A DNA stretch of 57,176 bases. Origin: a virus (taxonomy: Duplodnaviria; Caudoviricetes). Made by a program: the position numbers and the translations under genes. Under the pieces are notes generated by a model that worked only from the letters and a program-made list of their open reading frames with translations, did not search any database and had not been told where the DNA came from. This document shows positions 1 through 56,842 of this stretch, in pieces (within the stretch, counting starts at the first letter, position 1; every line of letters begins with the position of its first letter). The DNA lies in IMG/VR virus record IMGVR_UViG_3300017963_000309, positions 1-57,176 of that record; one strand, 5' to 3'.

Positions 1-11
1 GATATTTTATT

Positions 12-82
12 GCTCCGTTTGTCCATGGGTAAGATACTCGGCTGTCTACCGAGTGAACTGGGTTCAAGTCCCAGACGGAGCG
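12..82 (+). tRNA. tRNA-Asp(GTC)
   Basis: Acceptor GCTCCGT/ACGGAGC, anticodon arm CTCGG-CTGTCTA-CCGAG, T arm CTGGG-TTCAAGT-CCCAG, no encoded CCA. Confidence 0.92.
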
Positions 83-453
83 TAGTCTTGTCAGGCTAGG
101 TGATGTGCTGTCTTGTCCGGTAAAGTCTGGTAAGGTAAGGATTTCATATTTTATGATGTGTGGTTCGGTGCTGCGCGGTAAGGCGCTGTTAGGTTCTGTT
201 CTGTAGGGTAAGGTAAGGAAATTATATTCATGTGGTCGGGTCTTGTGCTGTGGGGCGTGGTAGAGCGCTGTCTGGTGATGAAAGGTCAGGTCAGGTTGCG
301 CGGGGTGGGGCAAGGTATGTTAAGGTAAGGTTATATTATATTCATGTGGTCAGGTGCAGTACAGTGCTGTGATGTGCGGTTCTGTTAACTAAGGTAAGGA
401 TTCATATTCACATGGTTATGTCTGGCGCTGTGTTGTTTTGTTGGGTGATGTAT

Positions 454-571
454 GGTAAGGTAAGGATTTCATATTCATAGGCTCGTAGCTCAGTCAGGTT
501 AGAGTACTGCTCTGATACGGCAGAAGTCACGGGTTCAAATCCCGTCGAGCCTATTAGTTGTTGTGTGGTAA
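454..571 (+). repeat. 118-bp exact copy of the contig end (57059-57176)
   Basis: Direct comparison: GGTAAGGTAAGGATTTC...TTGTGTGGTAA is identical at both places. Confidence 0.95.
479..553 (+). tRNA. tRNA-Ile(GAT)
   Basis: Acceptor AGGCTCG/CGAGCCT, anticodon arm CTGCT-CTGATAC-GGCAG, T arm ACGGG-TTCAAAT-CCCGT. Confidence 0.93.
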
Positions 572-776
572 CGTTCAGTTAGGTGCTGTGCGGTAAACTA
601 AGGTAAGGATTTATATTTTATTAGGTGATGTCCGGTGCAGTTGGGTGGTGTTCGGTGGTGTGGGGCTTGGCTTGGCGTTGTAAGGTAAGGAAGTAATCAC
701 TAAGGAGAAGTCACATAAGTATATAAAGAAAAACTTCTTCAAAAATTAAATTAAATAAAAAAAGAAAAAATTCAGC

Positions 777-3558: not shown

Positions 3559-4206
3559 TTATTTTCTATACAAGTCGCCGAGAACGTCGCGCATCTTATT
3601 CTTATCTTCCCAAGTGAAGATGTCGGGTGAAGCGTAAGCTGAAAGAAATGTATTATAATCATGACCTAACCTAGTACAAATTTCTCCACCATCAATTCCT
3701 AGAGCCTTTAACCAATTCCCGTGCGTCTTCCTGAAAGTGTGGGAAGCGATGTTCCAATAATCTTTGATTCCGGCTTTCTGTCCAGCCTTCTTGTAAGCAA
3801 TGTTCAATGCCGGATTAGAAATGACGCCGATGTAATCATTATCTTTCAAATTATTATCACGGATATATTTTCGTAAGTATTTAGCGAATTGTGAGCTAAC
3901 AGAGATTATCCTAACCTTCCCCTTCTTCTCACCCTTCTTTGCTTTAGTTTTGGTGACCCTCAAGATGATTCTATGATTCTGAAGGTCACAATCTTCAACC
4001 TTAACATTTTGCACTTCCATAATCCTAGCGCCAGTATTAATCAGCACAATAACCGAATGTTTCTGCTTCGGTTTTAGAGCATCCTCAAACTTCATGTACT
4101 CATGCGGGAAGAAGAACCTATCCTTGTTATCTCTAAGCGTATATTGTTTGCCATTTTTGAGCCTTAAAGATTCCAAATTATCCCTTAAATCATCACTTTT
4201 TGCCAT
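3559..4206 (-). CDS. tyrosine recombinase/integrase (mostly catalytic domain)
   Basis: NTGARIMEV (R), HTFRKT (HxxR), RLGH and a downstream Tyr (AYAS). Confidence 0.88.
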   Translation of the reverse strand: MAKSDDLRDNLESLRLKNGKQYTLRDNKDRFFFPHEYMKFEDALKPKQKHSVIVLINTGARIMEVQNVKVEDCDLQNHRIILRVTKTKAKKGEKKGKVRIISVSSQFAKYLRKYIRDNNLKDNDYIGVISNPALNIAYKKAGQKAGIKDYWNIASHTFRKTHGNWLKALGIDGGEICTRLGHDYNTFLSAYASPDIFTWEDKNKMRDVLGDLYRK

Positions 4207-26800: not shown

Positions 26801-28437
26801 ATATCTCCCACATCAGCAACTAAAGCTCCACCGGGTGAACCTCCAACTCCAAGTTTTGTCCACTGAATATCTTCACTTCCTCCACTAATTCTTGCTTGAA
26901 TACCGCCTCCACCACCAGCCCTTCCAGCACCAAAGAAAATTTCATTAGCTGAAACTGTACCATCAGCGTGTTTGAACCATAATGAGAAGCTAACATTAGG
27001 ATTAAAGTCTGTCAAGATTGAATCATCAAAATCGCCGGGCAACGTTTCATACTGTTTTGTTGAAGCATCGTAAGTATGATAATTACCAATGTGCCCTGAT
27101 ACAAGTGTACCATTACCTGTTGCATCGAATACTCCTGTTGCATCAACAGGTGTTGTTTCGTCTAAGAAGTAATATGCGTGCGGAGTCTTAAACGTAGCAT
27201 TAATATCGGAAGTTGAAGTTGAAACTGCCGGGTTCCCGTAGTACATATAAAAAGTGTTATTAGTGCCAGTAACATTATTAGTTTCGATTGTTACAGTGAA
27301 CCAATCAGAATCAACATAATCCCTTATCGTATAATTCAATTCTACTGTTTCAGTGCTGTCAAGGAAACGAACGTCCGAGAAATTACCATTCATTTTCCCT
27401 GTTTCAAAAGATAAATTAAGTGTTGGGTATTCACCAGTCAAATTACTTAATAACCTTTTATAATCCCAATCAGAATTCCACCACGCCCAATACTGTCTTA
27501 TAATGTCAGTCTCAAAACCTTGTAAGGATACTGCCCAGTCAACGCTTGAATATGGCGACTTTTTCGCCAAAATTTTCCAATAATAACTTCCAGCTTCCAA
27601 CGTTTCAAAATTGTATTCCTCGTAAACAATCTCGTCATAATATTCTGTGACTGACCCATTAACGAAAGGGTTACAAATGTCAAAAGTTCCAGTAGCGTTT
27701 ACTATCTCGCTACAATTAGGGTTATAAGTATCATGAGTATTATTGAAAGTTTCCATCTGCCCGACATAAATTTTAACATCGCTCAAATTAACCAAAGAAC
27801 CGACAGTGTTAACAAAATCGTAACCGTTAAACAATTCGTCGTTTTGGTACAAGACTGAGGTACCTCGAGCTTCACAATCTGTTAAACAATAGTCAGTATT
27901 ATAAGTTAGTGCGACATCTTGAACAACAACCTCGCTATCATTCTTAATCTCCAAATTATCGTCAACATAACTTACACTTGAAGAATGTTCACCGAACTTG
28001 ATAGTATCCTCATTAACGATGTCAACATCAACACACATCTTCTTCACCTTACCGCCCTCGGTTTCAACCTCCATATCTGAAGGTTCAACTTCACCAGTCT
28101 TAACTCCATTATTACGAAGCGTGGCTTTACTTTCTTGGATTATATCGTCATTAATCCTTAAATTCAATTCTTTCGGAACAAGACAAACTTTCGCTTTCCC
28201 ATTATCAAGATTTTCAATAATTGTATCAAAGTATTCTTCTTGTATTCCATTCTCATACTCATGAACCCATTTAGGACTATGAGTTAAAGTGTAACCGTTC
28301 AAGTCATCTTCACAACTCCAGAACGGTATCCAATCGCACCACTGAAAAGCGCTAACAGATGGTAGAAGAACCAGCATCATTGCTAGCACTACAAAGAAAC
28401 GAAGCCTATGCTTTTTATCCATAAAGTTTAATGTCAT
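23878..28437 (-). CDS. large surface glycoprotein/adhesin (DUF2341 + LamG + Ig-like), C-terminal TMs
   Basis: Signal peptide, WWNSDWDYKR and FSDVRF, SFSLWFK...WHHL...FDGGIDEF, many NxS/T. Confidence 0.85.
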   Translation of the reverse strand: MTLNFMDKKHRLRFFVVLAMMLVLLPSVSAFQWCDWIPFWSCEDDLNGYTLTHSPKWVHEYENGIQEEYFDTIIENLDNGKAKVCLVPKELNLRINDDIIQESKATLRNNGVKTGEVEPSDMEVETEGGKVKKMCVDVDIVNEDTIKFGEHSSSVSYVDDNLEIKNDSEVVVQDVALTYNTDYCLTDCEARGTSVLYQNDELFNGYDFVNTVGSLVNLSDVKIYVGQMETFNNTHDTYNPNCSEIVNATGTFDICNPFVNGSVTEYYDEIVYEEYNFETLEAGSYYWKILAKKSPYSSVDWAVSLQGFETDIIRQYWAWWNSDWDYKRLLSNLTGEYPTLNLSFETGKMNGNFSDVRFLDSTETVELNYTIRDYVDSDWFTVTIETNNVTGTNNTFYMYYGNPAVSTSTSDINATFKTPHAYYFLDETTPVDATGVFDATGNGTLVSGHIGNYHTYDASTKQYETLPGDFDDSILTDFNPNVSFSLWFKHADGTVSANEIFFGAGRAGGGGGIQARISGGSEDIQWTKLGVGGSPGGALVADVGDIDTGWHHLFNIANTTGMYIYYDGSYVSVTHANVDSFISLFAGQDIRLGAYANDITVQNFFDGGIDEFVVFSPTSGVTPDTVAEYYSMSDQTNTYILGAEESGTLSPVITLIEPLNNAYDTDGNVFFNCTGTYNTGMTALNMTFDGNVVAQVTNSSQSENLTATYTNASIPDGVYTWNCNGVSVDNTTKTSTTYTLNVDSNAPVVNITAPTNGTIITQPNESFDFNWTVTELNATSCVIEADNYQFIDNDSNLTTYFAWTGGGFTWYNFTDAGLQGTTADWFYNNGVSFQKQAGFSYSNWTAPSDDINCMNDEFTSPVVYVNATNVGKYVCFRRYPSEGGQNVVMKIENTSALLWAFDNLTVDCNANTTTFNYPNESIPSSITFTLTATDWFNYTSSNSTTIVTSTIAPNITITSPVTLYDTLTDNDTVDLNFSITNTTILDDCWYEYDGSNNTISCLTNTNFNYITGINSLTLYANDSFGNLGSETVSWVVLAATQSIIYESEVIETDQTEFVAVINLSTGVLSVTGNLVYDGTSYSAIPTVTGNQTNLTRTINVPLVAADENKSFYFNLNITTVNGSGVATSPVNNQTVYNLELTRCDAGDPQEVIRYTTRDARSPFGLLNTTLASSWFYYLYNGTGSVVQNISYQDTVENDSRYTFCLNFNETIVVNNQVEVEATDYVPSSNFLVAANLSQDSFTNQTIYLLNSSLADATVLRVFDQAGFYVPNVLINVQYYDIGTNSFITVTQASTSSIGSDVVYLNWLDSLYKFVLVKDGETVETTLPENIFESPRDFTLGEDTVFEFEKFQDIDYNLYYTNSTQDFYLTYSRPDGKFTEGCLRVTKKNAAGDTLICDTCSTAASATLLCNIASYGNGTYIATFYATGSPASGIDWILEIVGGSFSQTIGDALGAEDSTFYAFMLGILVVGVMFVNPVAGIVAALLALFISSLLGFVVINYLTLMGIVITGGIIAWLIRG

Positions 28438-28913
28438 AATTGCGCTCCCGAGCCACTTCCAGATTTAAATGATACAACTACCACTAATAAGATAATGCCA
28501 ATTATTACTATTATTGGAAGATATTCCATGAACAAAGAAGCTATCGTGACTTTATCCCCACTATCACCCAACTCACTTCCAATCAAATTACCGTAAACGT
28601 TTGAATATATGACTGCTAAAGTTATTAGAACGCCAAGGATTATGACGCCAACGAATATCATGATTGGACTTCGTAATACTGCGCCAGTAGAAAGCATGAT
28701 GAAGCCGAAAATTCCAATGATTAGGAAGGGGATTAAACTGTCAAAGAAAGCTAGACCGCTACCTGTTTGTGAGAGGGCGTCATTAATTTTATCAGCGTCA
28801 CCCGACGGCACTGAACTGTTTAATCCTTCAGCTAATGGGTTTTGAATTTTATCGAACGCATAATTTGCCACTAGAAGAAATATGGAAATAGTTGCAAGGA
28901 TTACAATTATCAT
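28434..28913 (-). CDS. multi-TM virion membrane protein (may start upstream)
   Basis: Four hydrophobic helices; in-frame upstream NKRGQAEGFLTWF. Confidence 0.7.
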   Translation of the reverse strand: MIIVILATISIFLLVANYAFDKIQNPLAEGLNSSVPSGDADKINDALSQTGSGLAFFDSLIPFLIIGIFGFIMLSTGAVLRSPIMIFVGVIILGVLITLAVIYSNVYGNLIGSELGDSGDKVTIASLFMEYLPIIVIIGIILLVVVVSFKSGSGSGAQL

Positions 28914-28954
28914 GAACCAAGTTAAGAATCCTTCCGCTTGCCCTCTTTTATTTG

Positions 28955-29635
28955 TTAGTATGGGTCTGATTTTTCCCTCTTAGCTTTCTTTGCCTCTTTT
29001 ACTTTATTGAACGCTTCAATCGTGTAGAAGATGAAGATGTATGCAATATAGAATATGAAAACTACCACACCCAAAATTAACGCTGTCTGCCCCATTAGTT
29101 GTAAAGAGCTTGACGTTGAAAACATTATCAAAGTCGAATTAATTAGAATCACTGTAGCTAATACCGCTGATAAGTAGAAGAATGATTTCACTTTCCACTT
29201 CTCTTTAGAAAATGTAAAACCTATAGCGAACAAGATGAAAACGAGAACAGCCATCGGCATTAAAGCTAAAGGTTGCGATGAAGAAAATGATTGACCGTTA
29301 GAAGTGACATGAAAATCATAATTTGAACATTGGATAACGCCCGCCAAATCGCCGCAAGTTGTTACGATGTATTGTCCGAGTTGAGAAGTGTCAGAGAATT
29401 GATAATAAAAAGTTTGACCTTGTTTAGTCATGTTTGAATTAATGAACGTTTCAGAACTATCAGGAAACTTCACTTTCTGCAGGTTGACATAACTACAGGT
29501 TGCACAGACTTGACTTAGATTGATTGCATTATCTTGTGCGAAAGTGCCCAACGTTTGAACTTGCGCTACCGCGAGTGGTAACACGAAGAAGAACATTGCG
29601 AGCGTAAAATATTTTATCACAGCTTTTTCCATCAT
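28955..29635 (-). CDS. membrane glycoprotein
   Basis: Signal peptide, CxxC beta domain, three C-terminal TMs. Confidence 0.75.
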   Translation of the reverse strand: MMEKAVIKYFTLAMFFFVLPLAVAQVQTLGTFAQDNAINLSQVCATCSYVNLQKVKFPDSSETFINSNMTKQGQTFYYQFSDTSQLGQYIVTTCGDLAGVIQCSNYDFHVTSNGQSFSSSQPLALMPMAVLVFILFAIGFTFSKEKWKVKSFFYLSAVLATVILINSTLIMFSTSSSLQLMGQTALILGVVVFIFYIAYIFIFYTIEAFNKVKEAKKAKREKSDPY

Positions 29636-29670
29636 TTATCTTAATAATTCATCTTATTTATATTTTGTGT

Positions 29671-31914
29671 TTATGGGACAATGATTCCATGCGTATACCT
29701 TCCAGAGTAGTTCCATGTCCCTGCAGCTACAGCAGTAGTATTTGTTGGTTCATAGTATGTCAAATTTCTATCACCATACTCCCAAACTCCCGCTTCAGTC
29801 AAGTTATAATTTGTGGTGTCGACAATGAAATCAAACGCTGTTAGAGTTCTATCAGTCTCATTCCAAATACCAAGACTAATCAAGCTGTAATTAGTTACAT
29901 CCTCATAATAAGTAAGATTCCTGTCAGTGTATCCCCAAACATCGTCAGCAGTTAGATTAACAAGCCCTGTGTCAATCTCAAAGTCGAAACCTGTCAACTC
30001 ACGATTAGTATAATTCCACACTCCAACACTTATCAAGCTGTAATTAGTTTTGTCAGTTGAAGGAGGATAATATGTAAGGTTCCGTTGAACATAGGTCCAA
30101 ACATCCTCAGCTGATAGATTGATTAAGCCCGTGTCAATAGTAAATGTGAAATCTGTTAATTGCCTATCAGTATTATTCCAAACGTAATCACTCATTACAG
30201 CGTAATCAACAGTGACGGGTTCAGTATATGTAAGGTTTCTTGAACTATACTCCCAGACGTCTTGAGCTGTCAAATTAATATCGGTAGTATTAACAATAAA
30301 ATTGAACGCTGTTAATTGCCTATCCGAATAACTCCAAACTCCTTCATTGATTAAAGTATAATTTGTTACATCCTCAGTGTAAGTCAAATTCCTATTATCA
30401 TTAGTCCAAACATCATAACTTATCGCGTCCAAGATAGTGGAAGAAATAGTTCCAGTATAATTCCAGATAGCGTTAACGAATTGTGTTATAATATTAGTTG
30501 AAACGTTACCAGAATAGTTCCAAACCTGAGATGTTGTTTCGTGAGCAGTTTGGTTCAACACATTATAATTTATTGTACCATTAAAATCTTCCCATGTCGC
30601 GTTAACATAACTTTGCCTGTAATGGTCGAACCAATCATTGATATGAATTTCTCCTGAACCTTTCAATTCTTGAATTATACCTGAAGCAGTCTTCAAATTA
30701 ATGTTAAGCCAGTTATCGTACTGGTTGAAACCTGTACCTGATGACGCAGTAACTCTTATTCTTATGATACCTGAAGCGTTAATGAACCCTTCGTCAGGGA
30801 TATGGTTTGAAACGAAATCGTTCAATCCTGTTGGAGAACCACCTGTCGCGTGACCAGAGAATGTTAAATTATTTGGTAAATGATACCATGTTCCCGACGT
30901 GAAATTGTACGCTTCAAATTCAAGCAGGGCATTGATTGAAGCTTCACCCATGTAAAAGAGTAAAAGGTTGGTGACGTTACTCGTGTTCAATGCGTGAACA
31001 GAAGTGTCAAAATCGTATATTGCTTGACATTTTTTCGTCGCACCACCAGTTGATGTACACGAAGTGTAAATGTAATCAACATAAGCGTTAAGTCCGATAG
31101 GGCTTGAGGCATAAGTTCCTATAACTTCCGTCCTCGCTGGGAAGTTTGAGTCCATACCGTCAGTGTAATAAACGAAAGTACTACTCAGTTCCGCTGAACA
31201 TCCAGCCGTCATCATGTAAACACCCGTCTCGTTTGGCAAGGTTGTAATGTCGTAATAATAAAGCCCATTACTTCCTTCTAAATGTAACATTGGAGCATTA
31301 ATGATGTAATGGTCGGCAGTAGAATTAACTCTTTCTGGATAATAAACGTCAATAGAACAAGCACCTTGATTCTCTGGTAAACCCTGATTATCTCTTAACT
31401 GTAAGAAAATTCTAGCTTTTTCCCCGGGACGATATTCGGTACCGAAGAATTCGAACTCGCCGTTTGGGTCATTCATGTAAGTTAAATCAATCCAGCCAGT
31501 GATAGTCCCCAAATCATCATCAGGTCGTAGAGTTATTTCGTATACACCTTCTCTCGTTATAACATTGGTGCAATCGAAAAAGATTGTACCTTCCCCCGCG
31601 TTAGCATACGATGTGTGAACTAGGAAGGAAGGATTATTACACTCTTGACCGTTAACCCATAAGTAATACCTGATGGTTGGATTATGCCACACTTGAAAAG
31701 TTATCATAGCGTTTTGTACTTCACTTATCCCGTCAGGAGTATCAACAGTTAAATTATAAGAATAATCTGTATCACCTTCCATCAATTCTCGGTACAGAGG
31801 GTCTAAGTAAATCTTATTAAATTGTTGAGTTGGCTGTTCCGCCGGAACTAAGCTTAAACCAAACAAAAAGATTGCACCTATAGCAAGACAGATTGCGAAT
31901 AGTTTCAATTTCAT
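29671..31914 (-). CDS. secreted fibre-like glycoprotein with VWxYxxRxLT repeats
   Basis: Signal peptide; about 9 repeats in the C-terminal half. Confidence 0.8.
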   Translation of the reverse strand: MKLKLFAICLAIGAIFLFGLSLVPAEQPTQQFNKIYLDPLYRELMEGDTDYSYNLTVDTPDGISEVQNAMITFQVWHNPTIRYYLWVNGQECNNPSFLVHTSYANAGEGTIFFDCTNVITREGVYEITLRPDDDLGTITGWIDLTYMNDPNGEFEFFGTEYRPGEKARIFLQLRDNQGLPENQGACSIDVYYPERVNSTADHYIINAPMLHLEGSNGLYYYDITTLPNETGVYMMTAGCSAELSSTFVYYTDGMDSNFPARTEVIGTYASSPIGLNAYVDYIYTSCTSTGGATKKCQAIYDFDTSVHALNTSNVTNLLLFYMGEASINALLEFEAYNFTSGTWYHLPNNLTFSGHATGGSPTGLNDFVSNHIPDEGFINASGIIRIRVTASSGTGFNQYDNWLNINLKTASGIIQELKGSGEIHINDWFDHYRQSYVNATWEDFNGTINYNVLNQTAHETTSQVWNYSGNVSTNIITQFVNAIWNYTGTISSTILDAISYDVWTNDNRNLTYTEDVTNYTLINEGVWSYSDRQLTAFNFIVNTTDINLTAQDVWEYSSRNLTYTEPVTVDYAVMSDYVWNNTDRQLTDFTFTIDTGLINLSAEDVWTYVQRNLTYYPPSTDKTNYSLISVGVWNYTNRELTGFDFEIDTGLVNLTADDVWGYTDRNLTYYEDVTNYSLISLGIWNETDRTLTAFDFIVDTTNYNLTEAGVWEYGDRNLTYYEPTNTTAVAAGTWNYSGRYTHGIIVP

Positions 31915-34045: not shown

Positions 34046-34870
34046 TCATTCTTCGCTATCTCCCTTGTCTTTCTTCACGACGTTATGAATAATCGGCGTA
34101 ATTACATCATTGAAATATTCAGGTGTGTGAAAATGTCTTTTGTTGGGTGCTTCATCTATCTTTAATTGCTTCTCTATGAAATCGTCTAATACTTGCAAGT
34201 TCTCAATAATGTGATTTTCGTTTTGATTTCTTTTATTTTGAATAATCTTAACTAGGATTTCCTTAATCTCTGATGAGACATTCTTATCATAGGAAAGTGC
34301 TGAAAGTGTTGTTTCAAAATCAATCATGGGTAAACTTCCCCTTTCTTTGACCCAAATAGAATTAATAATTCCCCTACAAGTGTAAAGATATTTCTTTGGA
34401 GTTGATGGATAATTCTGAGGCTTAATGTATTTTAGATAGTTCTGTTTTCCCATTGATTTATAATGATAGTATAAACTAATTGGATTAAATAAGTTGTTTG
34501 AAAATCTCACAAATTCTTTAGGTCTTTCACCAAAGTAAAGTATATTAGAATTAAGCCATTCAATTACTGTTGGATTTGAAGATGATAACATCTTACTAAA
34601 CTTTAGAATATCAAACCCTTGCATATCAATTAAACTACCCTCTGGACTTATCCTTTCAAATTTCTCATTAAAAGCAACAGTAATAACATCACTCTTTGGA
34701 TTGATTAAGGTATATTCTTGTGGTTTACGATAGAAAACAAATCTTACGTCATAATCAGAATCCTTACTCGCCATCCCCCATGCTCTTGAACCTGACTCTA
34801 CTGCAAATAATATTTGTACATCATACTCTTTTGCTACTTGCATTAATAATTCGTTTATCTTCTCTTTCAT
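34046..34870 (-). CDS. Pol-beta-type nucleotidyltransferase (Nuc-transf/YcgL-like family)
   Basis: AVESGSRAWGMASKDSDYDVRFVF, NPTVIEWL, KKYLY. Confidence 0.88.
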   Translation of the reverse strand: MKEKINELLMQVAKEYDVQILFAVESGSRAWGMASKDSDYDVRFVFYRKPQEYTLINPKSDVITVAFNEKFERISPEGSLIDMQGFDILKFSKMLSSSNPTVIEWLNSNILYFGERPKEFVRFSNNLFNPISLYYHYKSMGKQNYLKYIKPQNYPSTPKKYLYTCRGIINSIWVKERGSLPMIDFETTLSALSYDKNVSSEIKEILVKIIQNKRNQNENHIIENLQVLDDFIEKQLKIDEAPNKRHFHTPEYFNDVITPIIHNVVKKDKGDSEE

Positions 34871-35765: not shown

Positions 35766-36377
35766 TTAACTGAAGTCTTTATGTTTTATTTTAGTTATTA
35801 TTCTTCTACCATTTCTTGCAGACATTTCTACCTTCGGTCTTAATACTATCCCCTCTGCAATAAAGTCTCCAAATTCAGAATTAAATCCATTACGTGTCAT
35901 TTCAATAGCATCGTTTAGTGTTCCCTCACCAATTATCTTCACAGTTTTTAATCCTAGTTTTTCGGCTATTTCTTCAACGGCTTCTCTTTTAAGCCACCAT
36001 TTTCCAACCTTGACATCAAAAAGTATAAAACTCACTCCATCAGAAATATAGTTTCCACCACTCTTTTGTATTCCTGCACCATAACCTTCGCCGTATAAGC
36101 AAACTTCATCATCAAAAATTTCCTCAAACTTTTCTTTATCAAACATTTCTTGTAATTTCTCCATTAAGAAAACTGGCATTTGTGCATTGTCTGTCTTTCC
36201 TCCGAATCTTAACTTTTCCCCATCCCACATTATTCTGATATTAGTTCCATCTATCTTTTCAGTAAACACCCAAGAGTTATCTTTTAGATATTCAAACTCT
36301 GGCAGAGAATACTCTTCTGTAAACTTCCCTTTATTATCTCTTTTGAAGATTGATTGTATTTTATGGTATTCTCTCAT
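35766..36377 (-). CDS. ATP-dependent RNA ligase (Rnl2-like adenylation domain)
   Basis: TEKIDGTN, LYGE, FDV, AEGIV, KIK. Confidence 0.88.
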   Translation of the reverse strand: MREYHKIQSIFKRDNKGKFTEEYSLPEFEYLKDNSWVFTEKIDGTNIRIMWDGEKLRFGGKTDNAQMPVFLMEKLQEMFDKEKFEEIFDDEVCLYGEGYGAGIQKSGGNYISDGVSFILFDVKVGKWWLKREAVEEIAEKLGLKTVKIIGEGTLNDAIEMTRNGFNSEFGDFIAEGIVLRPKVEMSARNGRRIITKIKHKDFS

Positions 36378-37012: not shown

Positions 37013-37672
37013 CGTATTTTAGCACTTCTGTGACTCCTTCCATTTATCTATAAAGAGTTTGAGTGTTTTCCCATTATCTTGAATTGATTCTTCAATCTTG
37101 GCATCCCACATCTCAATAATCTTCCTACCATCAACCATTACTACAATCCTATTTTCTTTTCTTAATTCCATTTTTAGCACTTAGGTGACTCCTTCAAATT
37201 TATCTTTTTGTTCCTTCAGTAAACCTTCCTCGATATCTTTCATTAGTTGGTACTTAATTAGGAAATCGTTTAGTGCCCCTTGCTTGATATCATTCTTCAA
37301 TCTTTCAAACTTTTCTTCATAACTTAACTTTCTTGGCATCTTTCTCCTCCTTCAACTCTTTATCTAAACATTTCTTATCATTGCAGATGAACTTGCCGCC
37401 ACTAATGGCGCCCCAGTTCTCGGTTAGGATAATTCTTTTCTCGCAGTGCTTGCACAGAACGTCACGGTATAATTCTCTTCGTATCATTTTAAGGAGGTCG
37501 TCACGGGGTAAGGTATGTTATGTATAAAAAAGAGGTGATATAGCTTAATCCCAAAAGAAAAAGGTTTTACCGCCAAGATGCTACTTTCAAAAGTTTTTAC
37601 CCCGTGACTGTCCATAGTTTTTGGACGCACCTTTTCTTTAAATATGTGAGCGAGCACTGGAGAGTGAGAACA

Positions 37673-37746
37673 TAGTCCCGCGAGGATTCGAACCCCGGTA
37701 TCTGATTCCAAAGACCAGCGCATTTGTCCAGCTATGCTACGGGACT
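37673..37746 (-). tRNA. tRNA-Gln(TTG)
   Basis: AGTCCCG/CGGGACT (archaeal-type A1:U72); CTGGT-CTTTGGA-ATCAG. Confidence 0.9.
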
Positions 37747-37749
37747 AAA

Positions 37750-37824
37750 TGGGGCTGCGCGGATTCGAACCACGATAACGTACTTCCAAAGCACGGATAC
37801 TAAACCAAATTATATTACAACCCC
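37750..37824 (-). tRNA. tRNA-Pro(TGG)
   Basis: GGGGTTG/CAGCCCC; CGTGC-TTTGGAA-GTACG. Confidence 0.82.
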
Positions 37825-37911
37825 AGTTAAGAAAAAATGTCTATTCACTGTTGGGGCTGCCAAATTGTCATAAGAAAAATAAAGAAAAAGGTTATTTAAA
37901 GTTTATCATGT

Positions 37912-38070
37912 TTACTTGATAATCTTTCTTTTTTGACATTGCATACACCATTCAACAGTTCGCTTGAGATACTTCTTTCCAGTCTTTCGGTCACCACGAC
38001 CGTACCTCTTGAAAACACGATGAACAGTTTCTTCTCCGCAATGTTTGCAAAGTTGTTCGTTGTACTTCAT
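37912..38070 (-). CDS. 52-aa basic Zn-ribbon protein
   Basis: Manual translation MKYNEQLCKHCGEETVH...WCMQCQKRKIIK; GGAGG RBS. Confidence 0.6.
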   Translation of the reverse strand: MKYNEQLCKHCGEETVHRVFKRYGRGDRKTGKKYLKRTVEWCMQCQKRKIIK

Positions 38071-38150
38071 TTAAGCCTCCACGTTTAAATCACGTGGAGC
38101 TTCTTTGCTTACTCATTATGAAATGAGAGTTTGATACTATTTAAATTTTA

Positions 38151-38221
38151 TGCGAGCAAAGGGAATTGAACCCCCGCTAAATGGTTGGAAACCACTTGTC
38201 ATACCACTAGACCATACTCGC
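38151..38221 (-). tRNA. tRNA-Gly(TCC)
   Basis: GCGAGTA/TGCTCGC; AGTGG-TTTCCAA-CCATT. Confidence 0.88.
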
Positions 38222-38223
38222 AA

Positions 38224-38310
38224 TCGAGGGAGTAGGATTTGAACCTACGAGGACATAAAAGCCCATGGAGCTTAAATCCATTCCGTTTGACCAGACTCCG
38301 GCATCCCCCG
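38224..38310 (-). tRNA. tRNA-Leu(TAA)
   Basis: ATGGA-TTTAAGC-TCCAT; long variable arm. Confidence 0.88.
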
Positions 38311-38313
38311 GAA

Positions 38314-38399
38314 TGAAGGGTACAGGATTCGAACCTGTGTAGGTCAAGAGACCACGAGTCCTAAGCCCGCCCCGTTTAACCTGACTCCGGCAACCCTTC
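38314..38399 (-). tRNA. tRNA-Leu(TAG)
   Basis: GAAGGGT/ACCCTTC; GCGGG-CTTAGGA-CTCGT; long variable arm. Confidence 0.88.
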
Positions 38400-38403
38400 A
38401 ATA

Positions 38404-38475
38404 TGGACTCTGAGGGTACTGACCCCCCTCCTCCTCGTTGCAAACGAGGTATGCTACCAGTAACACCAAGAGCCC
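38404..38475 (-). tRNA. tRNA-Ala(TGC)
   Basis: G3:U70 pair; CCTCG-TTTGCAA-CGAGG; atypical T loop. Confidence 0.82.
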
Positions 38476-38477
38476 AA

Positions 38478-38549
38478 TAGACCCGCAGGGATTCGCACCC
38501 CAGTCGCCGCCGTGTAAAGGCGGAGTGATAACTCCTACACTACAGGTCT
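38478..38549 (-). tRNA. tRNA-Val(TAC)
   Basis: AGACCTG/CGGGTCT; CCGCC-TTTACAC-GGCGG. Confidence 0.85.
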
Positions 38550-51024: not shown

Positions 51025-52246
51025 ACAAGTGTTTACAACCGAGGGAAAGATTAGCACAACCTTTAATGACTTCTTTAGGGCATTAAAAGAACAGTCAAAA
51101 CAAAAAAGGTTAATTAGTGGCACATTGGAAGAAGAAGTTTTATTTGATATTGATAAAAAAGATATAATCATCTTTGAAGTTGATGTTGATAAACTTGATT
51201 TTGAAGTCCCGAATGGGAAAAAAAGAAATCTAATAATCCCCTCAGAAAAAATCTTTGTTGAAATCCCTGAACTTTATTTTGATAATAAAAAGGAGAAAGT
51301 TCTTTTATTGGGTGGCTTTTTAATTTATCATTCAAAATTATTTAGTGAGAAGTTTAATGAAAAAATCGTCGTAATTCAAATGCAATTAGAATATACAAAT
51401 ACTGAAACTGGTGAATGTTATACAACTCCTTTGAGTTTACCTTACAAAAAAGGTATTCCCACAATAGAAGAAGAAATTACTGAAGAAATGAATTGGCACC
51501 ATGGTGATGAAAAAAAAGAAGGTTTCCAATTAAGTAATAACATCAAAACATCTATTGTAAAATATGTTCAAAAGGTTTGCATTACAACGCTTTACAAAAT
51601 AGAACGTAAAGAATATACCAAATATAAAAAATGGACGCCACGAGGTTTCATCGAGAAACCAATTATTTATGCTCATGATGTCTCACGTCATAAACGACAT
51701 TTCTGGGAGGACAGTGGACGGTTCAAAATTCCCGGGTTGACTTTAAAAGAACGGGAAGAAAAAGGTTACGGCACTGATGAAGTGGTTTTTCGTGACGGTG
51801 AATTAAGACGTGATGTCCCGTTTCGGATTATAGGTGAATACTTAGTTGGTAAGATTAAGAAGAAGCGTGAAGATAACCGTAGAATAAAAGTAGCTAAGGG
51901 TCGCGTATTAAGATGTGAACAGAAAGTCTATGAAATCCTTCGTGAAATATTTCCGCATAAAATTATCACGCGACATGACCGTAGAACTTTGAAAGGTTTG
52001 GAACTCGATTTTAACTTACCTGAACTTCGTCTTGGTGTGGAATATGATGGTGAACAACACTATGATAAGGAATTGTGTGAAGCAGTTTTCAAATCAAACT
52101 TTGACGAACTCGTTCGACGGGATAGGAAGAAGGATAAACTTTGCCAAAGGAAGAAGATAAAATTACTAAGGATAAAATATGACGAACCTCTTACGAAGAC
52201 CCACTTTAAGAAAAAATTAAATGCTATGGAAGTTGCTACTTCCTAG
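51014..52246 (+). CDS. protein with C-terminal DUF559/Vsr-like endonuclease domain
   Basis: LELDFNLPELRLGVEYDGEQHY...RDRKKD...LLRIKY. Confidence 0.75.
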   Translation: MKNKQVFTTEGKISTTFNDFFRALKEQSKQKRLISGTLEEEVLFDIDKKDIIIFEVDVDKLDFEVPNGKKRNLIIPSEKIFVEIPELYFDNKKEKVLLLGGFLIYHSKLFSEKFNEKIVVIQMQLEYTNTETGECYTTPLSLPYKKGIPTIEEEITEEMNWHHGDEKKEGFQLSNNIKTSIVKYVQKVCITTLYKIERKEYTKYKKWTPRGFIEKPIIYAHDVSRHKRHFWEDSGRFKIPGLTLKEREEKGYGTDEVVFRDGELRRDVPFRIIGEYLVGKIKKKREDNRRIKVAKGRVLRCEQKVYEILREIFPHKIITRHDRRTLKGLELDFNLPELRLGVEYDGEQHYDKELCEAVFKSNFDELVRRDRKKDKLCQRKKIKLLRIKYDEPLTKTHFKKKLNAMEVATS

Positions 52247-52287
52247 GTGTCGCACACTTTTATAAATAAAACAATCTATGAATTACA

Positions 52288-52539
52288 ATGAAAAAAAGTA
52301 AATTATTTGCAAGAGTTTTTTGGGCAACGATATTCCTCTGGATTTTTTTCCTAGGAACTTCAGCATACGTTGGCTACCACAACCATCCAAATTTCATTTG
52401 GTATAATGTGGGGATAATGTTCGCCACAATATTGTTCCTTGCTTTAATGCTAGGATTCAAAAGAAAGGAATTCAAAACCGAACTAGCTTTTGCTGCAAAG
52501 AAGTTTAGCGAAGAACTTAACACCACGTCACGCCGGTAA
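52288..52539 (+). CDS. 2-TM membrane protein
   Basis: Two hydrophobic helices; TTTATAAA upstream. Confidence 0.65.
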   Translation: MKKSKLFARVFWATIFLWIFFLGTSAYVGYHNHPNFIWYNVGIMFATILFLALMLGFKRKEFKTELAFAAKKFSEELNTTSRR

Positions 52540-52689
52540 TCATACTCAAGTCTATCGCGGGAGACTGACGTAAAAAGACTTGAGGGGTCAGTTCAGGGTT
52601 CACCTGTTTTTTGTCCAAATTAACTGTGACCCATTTTTACTACGTAAAAACCGCTCACCCTCATCGTCAATCCCCGCGCTTGATATTTA

Positions 52690-52831
52690 AGTATGGTGAA
52701 GTAGGGTTCAGTCAGGTAATGTGGGGTTCGGTTCGGTAAGGAGAGGAAATCATATTCAAATCCGGTTCGGTAGGGTGTTGCGGTGTAAAGTGAGGTACTG
52801 TACTGTCTGGTGAGGTAATGTAAGGTAAGGA
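52690..52831 (+). repeat. orphan two-unit (DGY-NN)n array
   Basis: Same 5-nt register; units end TAAGGAGAGGAAATCATATTCA (52737) and TAAGGTAAGGA (52821). Confidence 0.88.
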
Positions 52832-52991
52832 ACAAAAAATAAAATGAAAATAAAAGAAAACGAAACACGGGGAACAATGTCAACTTTAGGCGTAAAAATG
52901 ACCAAGTATACCATGGACAAGAAGCGGTATACCAGTAAACTGATGGACGCAGAAAACCCTAACTGGAGAGAAGAAGGAGAATATTATTAAG

Positions 52992-53399
52992 ATGGCAAAT
53001 TGGAATTTAAGAGCAGGGAAGTCCACTTTGCAAGAAGCAATGGCAAATTTGATGAGACAAAAAAGTTATACTAGAAAAAAAGAAAGGAAGATGGATGACA
53101 TCTTCGGAACTAAATCCAAGGAGAAAACAAATATGGAAGTAAAAAGTAGATACGAAGTTATCGCGGAATTGGAACAGAAGAAAAATCATCTAATCCAAGA
53201 ACGTGAAGGTTTCAAAGATAAGGTAAAGGATATTAAGAAAGATATTCGTGAGTCTGAAAGAGAACTTGAAGACAAGAAGGAAGACCTTAAAGATTTTGAA
53301 GAAACTATTGATGAACGTAAAGAAACAATCAATGAGTTAATTAAATCTGTTGATGAAAGCTTGAAACGATTTCAAGATTTGAGACATTCGAAGAAATAA
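52992..53399 (+). CDS. coiled-coil protein
   Basis: K/E-rich heptads. Confidence 0.65.
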   Translation: MANWNLRAGKSTLQEAMANLMRQKSYTRKKERKMDDIFGTKSKEKTNMEVKSRYEVIAELEQKKNHLIQEREGFKDKVKDIKKDIRESERELEDKKEDLKDFEETIDERKETINELIKSVDESLKRFQDLRHSKK

Positions 53400-53534
53400 A
53401 TGATTTCAGAAAAAGTAAAAGCAAGATTTATGAAGAAAGGTGAAAATCATTTAACAAGAAGTAATAGTCTTAGAAAAAATAAAACTAAATTTAGTCCCCT
53501 CCCTAAGATACTGTTCAACTGAAAATTGAACTCC

Positions 53535-53606
53535 AAGATGGTAGCTTAATGGTAAAGCACTCGACTTGTAATCGAGAGATTGCCGGCTCGAAACCGGCTC
53601 ACACTA
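53535..53606 (+). pseudogene. tRNA-Thr(TGT)-like gene with broken acceptor stem
   Basis: D arm GCTT-AATGGTA-AAGC, CTCGA-CTTGTAA-TCGAG and GCCGG-CTCGAAA-CCGGC are intact; AAGATGG/TCACACT pairs poorly. Confidence 0.7.
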
Positions 53607-53628
53607 ACGGAGGGGATTCATATTCAAA

Positions 53629-53760
53629 ATGGAAACAATGAAAATTAAACTGGAAGGATTAGCAGAGTTAGGTTTGGGGATGGCTTGGGGCGGTTTCTGC
53701 CTAGTTTTACTGATGATAGGTCTCTGTATCGGACTCGCTATTGTTGTAGCATCTGGATAA
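53629..53760 (+). CDS. small hydrophobic peptide (43 aa)
   Basis: Manual translation METMKIKLEGLAELGLGMAWGGFCLVLLMIG... Confidence 0.4.
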   Translation: METMKIKLEGLAELGLGMAWGGFCLVLLMIGLCIGLAIVVASG

Positions 53761-53762
53761 TC

Positions 53763-54227
53763 ATGGCAAAAGATAAGGACGAGGTAATAAAACTTGAAGG
53801 AAAGAAATATAAGAAAACAAAATTCATAATTGAAGAGACTCACCCCGTCATCGGTCGCATTCTAATTATTGATGATAAGAAGTTTAAAATTATGGATGAG
53901 AGTGCTATCGGCGAACACCGTTCTGGAACCTTCATCGCTCCATTAACTGGAGATGATGAAGAAAGGATGCAAGAGTATGATGAAGATTTAGAAAACCTTA
54001 GCGAGAAACTTGCAGGGAGAGTTGACATCAAAAAACTCATCAAAGAAAATATTAAGAATAAAAAACATCAAGAAATCAAAACCGGTCTTTTCATTTTAAA
54101 CGAGATGGAGAAAGGTAACAAGTCAGCAGAAGAAGAACATATCAAAGGATGTTATCAATACGTGGCACATTATAAAAACCATTCCTTCGACTTTTTTTCT
54201 GGCGCACCACCGGAGGTTATTGAATAA
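53763..54227 (+). CDS. hypothetical protein
   Basis: Start reassigned to MAKDKD within ORF 53685-54227. Confidence 0.65.
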   Translation: MAKDKDEVIKLEGKKYKKTKFIIEETHPVIGRILIIDDKKFKIMDESAIGEHRSGTFIAPLTGDDEERMQEYDEDLENLSEKLAGRVDIKKLIKENIKNKKHQEIKTGLFILNEMEKGNKSAEEEHIKGCYQYVAHYKNHSFDFFSGAPPEVIE

Positions 54228-54589
54228 TCATGGCAAATGAAGATATAAAAGCGGAACTTGAAAAGTTGAAGCAGGAAGATGCGAACGCTCTTGAAAGGCA
54301 AAACCTTAACAGGGAAATGCAAAAGTATAAAGCGCGTAAGTGGGAAAGGCAACACCCAAGATTGGCTCGACTTAGAAACATTTTTAATCGCGGTGGCTGG
54401 TAAATCACTACGGTGCAGTGGTGGGAAGAATTTATATAGTCTAGTATTTTATAGAATTTATGAAAACGCAAAGTCACCATCTTTTGACTGTTTTGTTAAA
54501 AGATTTATGGAAACAAATTGATAGGGTCGGAGAAGATTTCGAATTAGCAAAAGCCATATCAACAGTTGTGAATTACTTAGAGGAAGATG

Positions 54590-54736
54590 ATGGAGAATAG
54601 AAATGAAACGCACGCTTCAATGGAAGTAACGAAAGACGTTAGAGCTAGACTTAATAGGATTAAAGGAGCGAAAGACTTCAGAACATACAACCAAACCATC
54701 TTATATTTACTTAAAAAATACGAAAATTCAGATTAA
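54590..54736 (+). CDS. ribbon-helix-helix-like DNA-binding protein (48 aa)
   Basis: Manual translation ...SMEVTKDVRARLNRIKGAKDFRTYNQTILYLL. Confidence 0.6.
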   Translation: MENRNETHASMEVTKDVRARLNRIKGAKDFRTYNQTILYLLKKYENSD

Positions 54737-54813
54737 TCTTTTACATAAAAGATTTTAGATTCAACGAAAAGGGACGTTTTAACGTCGATAAATAAAATGT
54801 TTAAGGACAAAAA

Positions 54814-55182
54814 ATGGTAACTAAAGAAGAACGTAAGCGAATGGTTTGGAGACAATTCGGGAAGCAGAAGTATGAAGAGATTAGTAAATTTCTTTTCTGG
54901 TTCATTGCTATTGGTTTATTTGTTTCTTTACTTTCAGGCGCATTATATTCTTGGAGCTCACTTGCTTGCGAGAATGGATGGCTAACAGCAACAGAGTTTA
55001 ATGGAACTTGCGATTATGAAGAAATAACGATGGTTGCAGTTGCTTCACTTTTCATATTAATAATGATTATTGCAGCAATGATTGGCTTAATTTTAACAGT
55101 TCGGAATTGGTTAAAAAAGAACTGGAAACAAGCAGAAGAAAAAGTTACCGCGGAATTAAAGAAGCAGAGGAATAAGAAATGA
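54814..55182 (+). CDS. 2-TM membrane protein
   Basis: Two TM helices around a Cys loop. Confidence 0.65.
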   Translation: MVTKEERKRMVWRQFGKQKYEEISKFLFWFIAIGLFVSLLSGALYSWSSLACENGWLTATEFNGTCDYEEITMVAVASLFILIMIIAAMIGLILTVRNWLKKNWKQAEEKVTAELKKQRNKK

Positions 55183-55379
55183 CTAGCTATATTTATTATG
55201 ATTGCGGTTGTGCATATTCTTTTTCCCTAGATGGATGGGGAAAGGGTCAAGAATTGGAATGTGAAAATCTTTGTGATGAACACGCAAAAGACATTGATGA
55301 TGAAGACAAGGAGCCAGAAGAAGGAAACTCACTAACAGTTGTAAGGAGGGCAAGAAAGAATGAAAAAGATAAAAGTTGA
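55179..55379 (+). CDS. small Cys/acidic protein
   Basis: DCGC...LCDEH; overlaps both neighbours. Confidence 0.5.
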   Translation: MTSYIYYDCGCAYSFSLDGWGKGQELECENLCDEHAKDIDDEDKEPEEGNSLTVVRRARKNEKDKS

Positions 55380-55905
55380 AATTAAAAGTATTTCGCCTTT
55401 ACTTATGAACTCGCCAAAAGCTATGATTGATGAGGCATTAGGTCAGGAGATGAAACTTAAGACCAAAAAATATGACCCAAAAGAAGAAGCTGAAAAAGTT
55501 GCATATAGGAACGAGAAGGGAAAACTCTTCGTACCGTCAACAGCCATCCGTGCTGCTATGATTAACGCATCCAGTTTCAAGAAGATTGGGAAGTATGCAG
55601 CCAAATCGATTGTTAGTGCATCCGTTTATATTCCTGAACCAGAAATTGTTTTGGATAAACAAGCTTATGAAGTCGACAGTAGAACCGTCGTAATTCAGAG
55701 GAACAGAGTTGTAAAGTTCCGACCTATTATTAAAGATTGGAAACTAAACTTTGAAATTGTTTATAATGAAAATTTGATTGATGAAAAATTCATCAGACAG
55801 ATTTTGACCGAAGCTGGGCAAAGGATTGGACTACTAGATTTCCGTCCACAAAAGACTGGAAGTTTTGGTATGTTTGAAGTAACTAAATGGACAGTTCAAA
55901 AATAA
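55360..55905 (+). CDS. stand-alone RAMP/Cas7-like RNA-binding protein
   Basis: IKSISPLLMN (first RRM strand), LFVPSTAIRAAM (PxSSxKG-like helix), Gly-rich C-terminal loop IGLLDFRPQKTGSFGMFEV; no other cas genes in the window. Confidence 0.8.
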   Translation: MKKIKVEIKSISPLLMNSPKAMIDEALGQEMKLKTKKYDPKEEAEKVAYRNEKGKLFVPSTAIRAAMINASSFKKIGKYAAKSIVSASVYIPEPEIVLDKQAYEVDSRTVVIQRNRVVKFRPIIKDWKLNFEIVYNENLIDEKFIRQILTEAGQRIGLLDFRPQKTGSFGMFEVTKWTVQK

Positions 55906-55913
55906 TTTGAAAA

Positions 55914-56648
55914 ATGGCAAGTAAAGTAAGGCAAATTCAGAAGAGAGTCGTAATCAAAGACATCTCTCTCGACAAAGAACTTTATCCTCGTGAAAACTAT
56001 TACTGGAAACAGGCTAAAGGTTACGCTACTGCAATGGAGCAAGGTGACCAGTTCCCTAAGATTATCTTAGGTTTGAACAACGGTACACTTTATCTTATTG
56101 ATGGTAGGCACAGGATTGAAGCTCATAAGATTTTGAAAATCAAAGAAATTGACGCTGTAGTATACCACGGGTTATCGAAAGCAGAAATCTTTAAGATGGC
56201 TGTTAAGACTAACACTACTCATGGTATGAGTTTATCTGCATACGACCGGAGACGGTGCGCTGTGAAGTTAATAGAACTTGGTGTCAAGAATGCTGAGGTT
56301 GCAAATCTTATCAATGTCGAAAGTGATGAACTTCAAGATTTCGTTGGACAAAGGATGGTTAACACTATCACCGGCGAAGCGGTTGAAGCTGAAGAAGATG
56401 AAGGTTTCTTCAAGAGTATGGGTAACCGTATTTTGAAGAACACTTTGAAACATTACGCTGGAACTTCCGGCGCTGAAGCTCAACGAGTTATTGATTTACA
56501 AAAGAAACTTCCAACTTCAATGAACCAAGATAAGGTATGGGCTACGGCTGTTTACCTCTTGGAGAATGATTTGGCAGATTTGGATAGTAAAGAAAATCTT
56601 GAAAAGATTGGACGATTGAAGACTCTTTTACGAAAAGTAAAACTTTAA
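55914..56648 (+). CDS. ParB/Srx-domain protein with HTH
   Basis: FPKIIL...YLIDGRHRIEA, NTTHG, GVKNAEVANLINV. Confidence 0.82.
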   Translation: MASKVRQIQKRVVIKDISLDKELYPRENYYWKQAKGYATAMEQGDQFPKIILGLNNGTLYLIDGRHRIEAHKILKIKEIDAVVYHGLSKAEIFKMAVKTNTTHGMSLSAYDRRRCAVKLIELGVKNAEVANLINVESDELQDFVGQRMVNTITGEAVEAEEDEGFFKSMGNRILKNTLKHYAGTSGAEAQRVIDLQKKLPTSMNQDKVWATAVYLLENDLADLDSKENLEKIGRLKTLLRKVKL

Positions 56649-56842
56649 AACCAAAAGATTGTTTATTTTTATTATTAAATTTCAGGCGGGTGACCAACCC
56701 TTATCCGTCTTTATTATTTTCACATTTACGGGACGTAACCTAGGTAATTTAAACTTATACAACCTTACCTTGTCCCGTTGATTACGGGGACGACCTTTTC
56801 TTGAAACCTCCTTGCATAGTTTTCTTTGAGGTTGTTCCTGTA

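Follow-up and report, generated by a model that had tools for sequence, protein, structure and literature searches.

A VIPR locus with tRNA genes at guide boundaries

We analyzed a DNA stretch of 57,176 bases (hereafter, the window), a complete-looking record of a virus of the Caudoviricetes (IMG/VR record IMGVR_UViG_3300017963_000309). Both of its ends carry arrays of guide units, and next to one of them lie vipr, which encodes a small protein of the RAMP family, and a ParB-like gene (Table 1). Judged by sequence and predicted fold, the region is a locus of the Viral Interference Programmable Repeat (VIPR) system in an uncultivated virus, composed of vipr, its ParB-like neighbor, and arrays of the guide RNA, vrRNA. 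Transfer RNA (tRNA) genes stand at boundaries between the guide units. An earlier sequence-only reading had described tRNA genes as punctuation within a guide array lacking Cas6 and had proposed that host tRNA processing may help to mature the guides. Its description of the array was borne out: this is a VIPR vrRNA array served by a single minimal RAMP, Vipr, and both ARAGORN and Rfam find tRNA-Asp and tRNA-Ile on the array strand at unit boundaries. The proposed maturation stands in a narrower form, as weighed below.

Table 1. Features of the window, by position
Position	Strand	Feature	Basis
11-83	+	tRNA-Asp(GTC), no encoded CCA; head-like GATATTTTAT upstream	ARAGORN; Rfam 47.6 bits at 12-82
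84-141	+	vrRNA unit directly after tRNA-Asp, headless, 11 pentamers	
142-466	+	Four vrRNA units (142-219, 220-331, 332-400, 401-466), each head + body + tail; 13, 20, 11, and 11 pentamers	
467-554	+	Head (467-477), then tRNA-Ile(GAT) at 478-554, no encoded CCA	ARAGORN; Rfam 69.3 bits at 479-553
555-691	+	vrRNA unit directly after tRNA-Ile, headless (555-609), then last unit (610-691)	
3559-4206		Integrase-family gene (tyrosine integrase)	
37672-38549	minus	Ordinary tight tRNA cluster	ARAGORN, Rfam
52690-52831	+	Two-unit vrRNA mini-array (52690-52747, 52748-52831), same tail	Tail matches, period-5 signal
55360-55905	+	vipr, 181-aa minimal RAMP (Cas7-like), protein partner of the guide RNA	Homologs, fold, profile
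55914-56648	+	ParB-like gene between vipr and array	PHROG ParB-like families, best E 4e-13
56843-56853	+	First head motif TCATATTCAAT, no tail upstream; marks array start	Sequence reading, motif match
56857-57071	+	Three vrRNA units, bodies ending at 56913, 56989, and 57071; 11, 12, and 14 NN-KGY pentamers	
57072-57176	+	Head, tRNA-Ile (57083-57159), and first 17 nt of next unit; exact copy of 467-571	
57083-57159	+	tRNA-Ile(GAT), end-repeat copy	ARAGORN; Rfam 69.3 bits

VIPR was reported in 2026 preprints, for example from Escherichia phage SUSP1 (bioRxiv 10.64898/2026.04.26.720920). According to the text and legends of that source, Vipr is a minimal RAMP, and each vrRNA is a run of 9-16 pentamers, in which GGY is constant and NN varies, ending in a constant 3' tail; the NN dinucleotides base-pair with DNA, one base being skipped between them, and the system is mostly viral and directed against competing mobile elements (bioRxiv 10.64898/2026.04.26.720920). 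Consensus motifs related to GGY are also mentioned in the texts of the VIPR preprints.

The vipr product has 203 homologs, nearly all of them unnamed, and also matches phrog_4652. We built an AlphaFold2 model from a 32-homolog alignment (pLDDT 85.7), and Foldseek matched it to Csm3/Cas7 RAMP chains in the PDB (E of about 1e-6, probability 1.0). The family profile, A1, matches one PDB sequence, 36pp_D, "SUSP1 Vipr protein" (E 3.8e-14, positions 1-174), as well as the vipr open reading frame (ORF) of the SUSP1 genome (E 3.1e-16). Among the 32 Vipr sequences, a C-terminal FRPQKxGxFG is invariant or nearly so. We assign the region to VIPR because of the RAMP fold, the SUSP1 Vipr profile match, and a pentamer make-up that fits the published vrRNA. 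At the sequence level the locus thus shows a Vipr homolog, tandem NN pentamers (in a KGY variant), a 3' tail, a viral setting, and arrays that flank vipr. No Cas families were found by Pfam in the 58 ORFs scanned. After the VIPR match, we dropped the other explanations considered for the period-5 DNA, namely, a partition centromere or iterons near the ParB-like gene, Chi-site clusters, G-quadruplex tracts, TRAP-like protein-binding RNA, box C/D RNAs, and a minus-strand coding sequence.

The main array begins 195 nucleotides (nt) after the parB-like gene. The order vipr, parB-like, array is common to the window and to four related loci (L120, L121, L183, and L189), and the ParB-like protein may be an accessory (vap-like) DNA-binding protein of this clade. 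Single-protein searches of viral contigs returned no relatives of the ParB-like or Band-7 proteins. The nearest Vipr relatives in genome bins (L201-L207) come from bins labeled as Woesearchaeota (60% identity), Bathyarchaeota, Thermoplasmatales, a euryarchaeote, Saccharibacteria, and Paceibacterota. The host may well be a small-celled archaeon or bacterium, with hints of DPANN or candidate phyla radiation (CPR) hosts for the clade.

Guide units share a head, a pentameric body, and a constant tail

Four stretches of the + strand are G/T rich (84-466, 555-691, 56857-57071, and 52690-52831), with C making up only 9-12% of bases. The autocorrelation of G at lag 5 reaches 0.31-0.49 in these stretches and recurs at multiples of 5, and all 22 of the 100-nt windows with a period-5 G power above 8 fall within arrays. 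Tandem Repeats Finder called no tandem array in the guide arrays. The tail motif GGTAAGGTAAGGA has 16 matches at up to two mismatches against 1.12 expected, a count reached by none of 100 shuffles; 14 of the 16 lie on the + strand within 129-691, 52730-52831, and 56901-57071.

We count 12 units in total, each with 11-20 NN-KGY pentamers. A unit opens with a short head rich in A and T, (W)TYATATTCAT; 9-18 pentamers, each a variable NN plus KGY, form its body, and AAGGT AAGGA is the tail. Every one of the 12 ends in GGTAAGGTAAGGA or a form within two mismatches of it. Tallied over 129 body pentamers, the third position holds G or T in 113, the fourth holds G in 121, and the fifth holds T or C in 128, which makes this a KGY variant. 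The head, in the form TCATATTCAT, precedes the units except for bodies that directly follow a tRNA. We read it as a 5' element of the unit rather than a part of the tail, because it stands without a tail at the first unit of the main array (56843-56853) and is absent after the last units, at 691 and 52831. Beyond 691, where no head follows, the next gene starts at 777.

The signs for the head as a general promoter are mixed: its 65 matches at up to one mismatch exceed the 25.6 expected, but they are scattered and mostly lie within genes. A sigma-70 scan gave no sites in 1-1100 and none at heads in 52200-57176. The last guide of the main array (622-691) is conserved in sequence across related viruses, its NN content recurring at 23 of 24 positions in L134 and at 22 of 24 in L121. 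The mini-array at 52690-52831 is followed by a small gene (ATG at 52845) and lies about 2.5 kb upstream of vipr.

tRNA genes occupy the slot between head and body

Both embedded tRNAs score above the Rfam tRNA gathering score of 29 bits (Table 1). The order around tRNA-Ile is tail (454-466), head TTTCATATTCAT (467-477), tRNA (478-554), a body in pentamer register from 555, and the next tail (597-609). The sequence-only reading had placed the tRNAs right after a repeat tail. For tRNA-Ile this needs amending, as a head of 11-12 nt intervenes; for tRNA-Asp only 10 nt are visible upstream (GATATTTTAT), which resemble the head variants at 146-154 and 613-621, and any tail would lie beyond the window edge. 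Its statement that the next periodic unit follows within a few nucleotides is accurate, since bodies begin 0-6 nt after embedded tRNAs overall and 1-6 nt after tRNA-Ile; the body after tRNA-Asp begins at 84, or in register from the discriminator base. The guides after tRNA-Asp and tRNA-Ile are headless but of normal length (11 pentamers).

The tRNAs are in register with the array. In 56-nt flanks, eight of nine pentamers are in phase on each side of tRNA-Ile, as are nine of nine downstream of tRNA-Asp; only 0.72% of 20,000 random stretches from related loci reach seven of nine. The tRNAs lie on the same strand as the array and abut the neighboring RNAs. Because this leaves no room for a promoter of their own, they would be transcribed as part of the array precursor. 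At its gathering score, Rfam finds no hammerhead or other ribozyme in the window, and the linkers are the 11-12-nt heads.

Embedded tRNAs in relatives were probably acquired separately

We assembled 72 viral loci and 7 genome loci through Vipr alignment, and 105 metagenome stretches through a tail-plus-head pattern. All 190 related loci together comprise 1.317 Mb, with arrays called in 89 of them and 19 tRNAs found by ARAGORN. Two loci, L183 and L189, carry a tRNA with array on both sides, a tRNA-Asp and a tRNA-Val confirmed by Rfam at 60.6 and 65.5 bits, respectively. Each encodes a Vipr (54% and 47% identity) with a ParB-like gene upstream of the array. Upstream of each of these tRNAs lies a shortened linker (GGAAATCA or GGGAATTA); the tRNA takes the place of most of the head, and a headless body begins at most 3 nt after it. 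Like those of the window, the embedded tRNAs of L183 and L189 encode no CCA. The tRNA-Asp genes of the window and L183 agree at 49 of 73 bases, a level not above that between unrelated tRNAs, which points to independent acquisition of the embedded tRNAs.

Pattern searches added arrays of the same type. A pair of tails 50-80 nt apart occurs in six viral contigs, four of which have arrays of the window's kind, three with the array right after a vipr-like gene; none of the six has a tRNA. A first DNA pattern scan gave 12 single hits, of which the period-5 screen flagged only L012 and L015, neither with an array on reading.

tRNA-to-guide junctions recur in other lineages

A second Vipr clade, examined in 13 loci (L071-L083, 28% identity), has units that start with GGCAGGC. 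In five of the 13 loci, a tRNA-Cys exactly fills the space from the upstream ORF's stop codon to the first guide, and the slot at the stop codon holds two different tRNA-Cys sequences, alike at 47 of 74 positions. Eight loci are without the tRNA; in seven of them the array starts directly at the stop codon (TAG|GCAGG), and one, L075, showed no array.

In a targeted scan of viral contigs (66 loci), we also looked for places where four in-phase GGY pentamers come 11-30 nt after a T-loop consensus. Of 114 tRNAs that ARAGORN calls in these loci, 15 have at least six of nine in-phase GGY pentamers adjoining. "tRNA-Ser" calls in L210 and L266 were dropped, as Rfam does not confirm them. By the same threshold downstream, there are 13 tRNA-to-vrRNA junctions in seven loci, 11 of them confirmed by Rfam and those of L230 and L251 outside the Rfam scan. 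Four tRNA-Arg isoacceptors in L241 (2500-4240) each have a guide after them, as do tRNA-Val, Val, Leu, and Leu in L273 (11050-12030, minus strand), a 395-kb virus. L230 and L251 hold single guides within clusters of 25-33 tRNAs. A Vipr homolog is encoded in four of five tRNA-junction records.

A tRNA-like minihelix fills the same slots

Most T-loop hits of the targeted scan proved to be an element of about 46 nt, with an outer stem of 4-5 base pairs (bp) and a 6-bp stem that ends in a GGUUCRANUCC loop. Its place is between GGY/NN guide bodies, and some arrays (L259 and L208) have it at both ends as well. Examples within L208-L273 are found at 3380-4300 of L266 (minus strand), 1775-2170 of L259, and 1700-2010 of L226 (minus strand). 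A covariance model, R1, built from 47 copies, has 129 matches in the 66 scan loci. On an alignment fitted to the model, covariation in the element is 0.679; shuffling lowers it to 0.167, with none of 500 shuffles reaching the observed value, and slid controls do not exceed 0.191. On an ungapped alignment, it is 0.623 versus 0.166 after shuffling. Pairing holds in 99.2% of cells of the inner helix and 70.4% of those of the outer. Searched at E values up to 1, four minihelix-bearing loci match no Rfam family, and there is no Rfam ribozyme in the relatives scanned. Three of five records with a minihelix or tRNA-Gln encode a Vipr homolog.

In its predicted structure, the element resembles a minihelix of acceptor and T-arm, which in a tRNA are the part recognized by RNase P and RNase Z. 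Because such minihelices cannot serve translation, yet fill the same slots and covary, we argue that a tRNA-shaped module may be selected in the guide-boundary slot for its own sake, for a property that is structural or related to processing.

The contig ends probably close a circle at tRNA-Ile

The window closes with 118 bases (57059-57176) that repeat 454-571 letter for letter. A public contig of 189 nt links the context of 57045-57058 to 454-628 without a difference, in two DNA runs from two studies. Because of the end repeat and this bridging contig, the window end most likely continues into 572 onward on a circular genome. The sequence-only reading had listed tRNA-Ile at two places; both are called, but they are most likely one gene seen at both ends of a circular assembly.

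Coverage of the array in public contigs is fragmented, with 371-444 uncovered. A 559-nt contig spans tRNA-Asp and the units after it (1-363) with one difference, and several different upstream contexts run into the block of tail and tRNA-Ile. Read depth is 4.9 (X1) and 5.7 (X2) for the contig with 1-363 and 12.2 and 11.7 for the contig with 599-1100. This gap is a weak hint of array variants in the viral population, in which 1-453 (tRNA-Asp and five units) might be a minority form.

How tRNAs may set guide ends

The tRNA-Asp and tRNA-Ile genes are co-oriented with the array in the slot between head and body and would be transcribed with it. From general tRNA biology, host RNase P would be expected to cut at the 5' end of the tRNA and RNase Z after the discriminator base. 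Such cuts would free the tRNA, shorten the guide before it, and give the headless guide after it its 5' end, and the tRNA would also gain expression from the array. Removing a tRNA from a guide boundary would inevitably part the guides on either side of it. That the downstream guide is headless in all four embedded cases (tRNA-Ile and tRNA-Asp of the window, L183, and L189) is the best sign within the arrays themselves that a tRNA takes over from the head in defining guide ends.

We lean towards tRNA punctuation as a local, optional stand-in for head-based end setting rather than a general mechanism, with both the cleavage and the benefit to the guides predicted. Register, headless downstream guides, and recurrence all speak for the proposal of the sequence-only reading that host tRNA processing matures guides. 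Across VIPR systems, it seems somewhat probable that vrRNA ends can be set in several interchangeable ways, of which tRNA punctuation is one and heads, ribozymes, staggered arrays, and minihelices are others. A wider proposal is that RNase P and RNase Z are the natural maturation nucleases of VIPR guides across viruses, acting through real tRNAs or a dedicated, evolved minihelix. We regard this as possible but tentative, with slightly more doubt than belief.

Several observations count against a processing role or limit its reach. tRNA processing cannot be the general maturation route of this array, because most junctions and most related arrays have no tRNA: in the window, only two unit starts follow a tRNA, the remaining units following a head alone. 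A lack of tRNAs in related arrays was among the outcomes that the sequence-only reading had named as refuting its proposal, and most related arrays do lack them: a tRNA with array on both sides is found in only two of the 89 array-bearing loci, and the close relatives L120 and L121, with long arrays and the same locus architecture, have none, although tRNA junctions recur in independent lineages. In the second clade the tRNA-Cys is dispensable, because relatives without it exist; its L073-type form encodes CCA, so that RNase Z need not be the enzyme there. The targeted scan, biased by design to T-loops with GGY, shows recurrence and not frequency. Model R1 has no match in the window, nor in any of 86 loci from the same Vipr clade, among them the SUSP1 locus. 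Among the public runs searched, no RNA run lists the stretch. The guides themselves gave no target: none of the 12, at up to three mismatches, matched 2.9 Mb of fetched loci on either strand above the chance level of other skip rules, and the conserved last guide has no exact match in viral contigs. Their function as guides is therefore assigned by homology.

The main rival holds that the tRNAs are passengers, parked in a strongly transcribed array for their own expression and placed at boundaries to spare the guides, with no part in maturation. The scarcity of tRNAs at most junctions and in most related arrays suits this explanation, as do the tRNA-less sister loci of the second clade, and the virus has an ordinary tRNA cluster elsewhere (37672-38549). 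Moreover, the single guides inside the tRNA clusters of L230, L251, and L273 could equally be guides hitchhiking on tRNA operons. However, a complete tRNA inserted between complete units would not be expected to leave the next guide headless, as happens in four of four cases, nor do passengers account for minihelices, which cannot decode, yet occupy the same slots and covary. We consider passengers unlikely, although they deserve more weight than the other alternatives.

The tRNAs might instead be anchors for the exchange of array segments, the alternative offered by the sequence-only reading, or attachment sites for the tyrosine integrase encoded at 3559-4206. The different upstream contexts that meet the tail and tRNA-Ile block, and the array variants hinted at by read depth, would fit such exchange, but the tail and head repeats common to the units could by themselves account for the branching of the assembly and for unit exchange. 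No att-like partial tRNA copy was seen, and complete tRNAs of differing identity lie at exact guide boundaries in unrelated lineages, all of which makes recombination or integration points improbable. Misassembly of this repeat-rich region could also have joined tRNAs to the array: the contig ends inside the 118-base repeat, public contigs are fragmented across the array, and 1-453 resembles an alternative path of lower depth. Yet the 189-nt contig reads through tail, head, tRNA-Ile, and the next unit without a difference in two studies, the 559-nt contig does so for tRNA-Asp and the units following it with a single difference, and the independent contigs L183 and L189 show the same arrangement. 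An artifact is thus very improbable, and processing by host enzymes at some guide boundaries, in the optional form described above, remains our preferred explanation.

Comparison with known systems

Set beside the SUSP1 VIPR as described in the preprint text, the window shares a single small RAMP, tandem pentamers of a constant trinucleotide plus NN, a constant 3' tail, and arrays that flank vipr in a viral genome, and it likewise has no Cas6 and no CRISPR repeats. It differs in that the trinucleotide is KGY, with G or T first, instead of a strict GGY. The tail of the window consists of two constant pentamers, whereas the SUSP1 locus, as we read it, has a structured pseudoknot tail; the units of the window also carry the TCATATTCAT head and embedded tRNA genes, and no target was matched. 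In the SUSP1 locus (L275, record 27001-30561, vipr strand), guides have a conserved motif of about 25 nt upstream, of the AGGTCTTT..AGGGTCTTTTA type, and a structured tail downstream. This 5' motif is analogous to the head of the window but unlike it in sequence.

The preprint text distinguishes plain tandem arrays, "staggered" arrays, single vrRNAs, and arrays interspersed with hammerhead ribozymes (bioRxiv 10.64898/2026.04.26.720920), the last of these in VIPR types I and V (fig. S19 legend, bioRxiv 10.64898/2026.04.26.720920). As far as that legend describes them, the hammerhead arrays resemble the window in that a cleavable RNA module between guides sets their ends without a Cas6-like nuclease, and because of them punctuation by a cleavable RNA module can be taken as in use within VIPR. 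The module of the window, unlike a hammerhead, is a complete tRNA that host RNase P and RNase Z would cleave in trans; it is present at some junctions only.

With CRISPR arrays processed by Cas6, the window shares a guide array beside the gene of a RAMP-family protein and a content that seems variable in the population; unlike CRISPR arrays, it has no direct repeats of 25-40 nt and no cas genes beyond the RAMP, and its guide information is noncontiguous. Punctuation by tRNAs is known from mitochondrial polycistronic transcripts, herpesvirus tRNA-microRNA units, plant tRNA-small nucleolar RNA genes, and synthetic polycistronic tRNA-guide RNA constructs for CRISPR. There, as proposed here, a tRNA abuts another functional RNA in one transcript, and its excision by RNase P and RNase Z sets the ends of the neighbor. 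Those cases involve other RNA classes and hosts; the punctuation of the window is partial, that of L241 and L273 is alternating, and cleavage of vrRNA is only predicted.

The main texts, methods, and legends of the VIPR preprints searched do not mention tRNA, save in the methods of one for delimiting intergenic regions. In the texts searched, the cutting of vrRNA precursors is unaddressed, apart from the hammerhead-interspersed and "staggered" arrays. VIPR itself is known from the preprints; within these texts, the tRNA-embedded and tRNA-led vrRNA arrays and the minihelix module go undescribed. Boundary tRNAs and minihelices offer a concrete, testable route of guide biogenesis, the action of RNase P and RNase Z on array transcripts. 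If true, this would explain how a one-protein system manages without a processing nuclease and would answer how guides are made without Cas6 in a system proposed to predate CRISPR. It would also be a natural counterpart of the engineered polycistronic tRNA-guide RNA design, supplying templates for multiplexed guide expression, and would tie viral tRNA clusters to RNAs of inter-virus warfare. The depth gap further hints, weakly, at array variation within a viral population, as in CRISPR arrays.

Other features of the window

Minus-strand ORFs run antisense through the arrays at 2-313 (104 aa) and 56682-57083 (133 aa); they are probably by-products of the C-poor, skewed composition and not genes. 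A tRNA-like remnant at 53539-53601 (+), with TGT in the anticodon loop and without an acceptor stem, matches the Rfam tRNA model at 50.1 bits (model positions 5-66) and is not called by ARAGORN. On its 3' side lies a head motif, TCATATTCA (53618-53626), with an ATG 3 nt on, at 53630, a spacing of head and ATG also present in L183 and L121. Any link of the remnant to the VIPR system is uncertain.

Across the whole window, ARAGORN calls nine tRNA genes, and Rfam gives 11 matches. Beside the minus-strand tRNA cluster lie genes for an RlaP-family nucleotidyltransferase (34046-34870) and an RNA ligase (35766-36377), a pair that looks like a tRNA-repair module.

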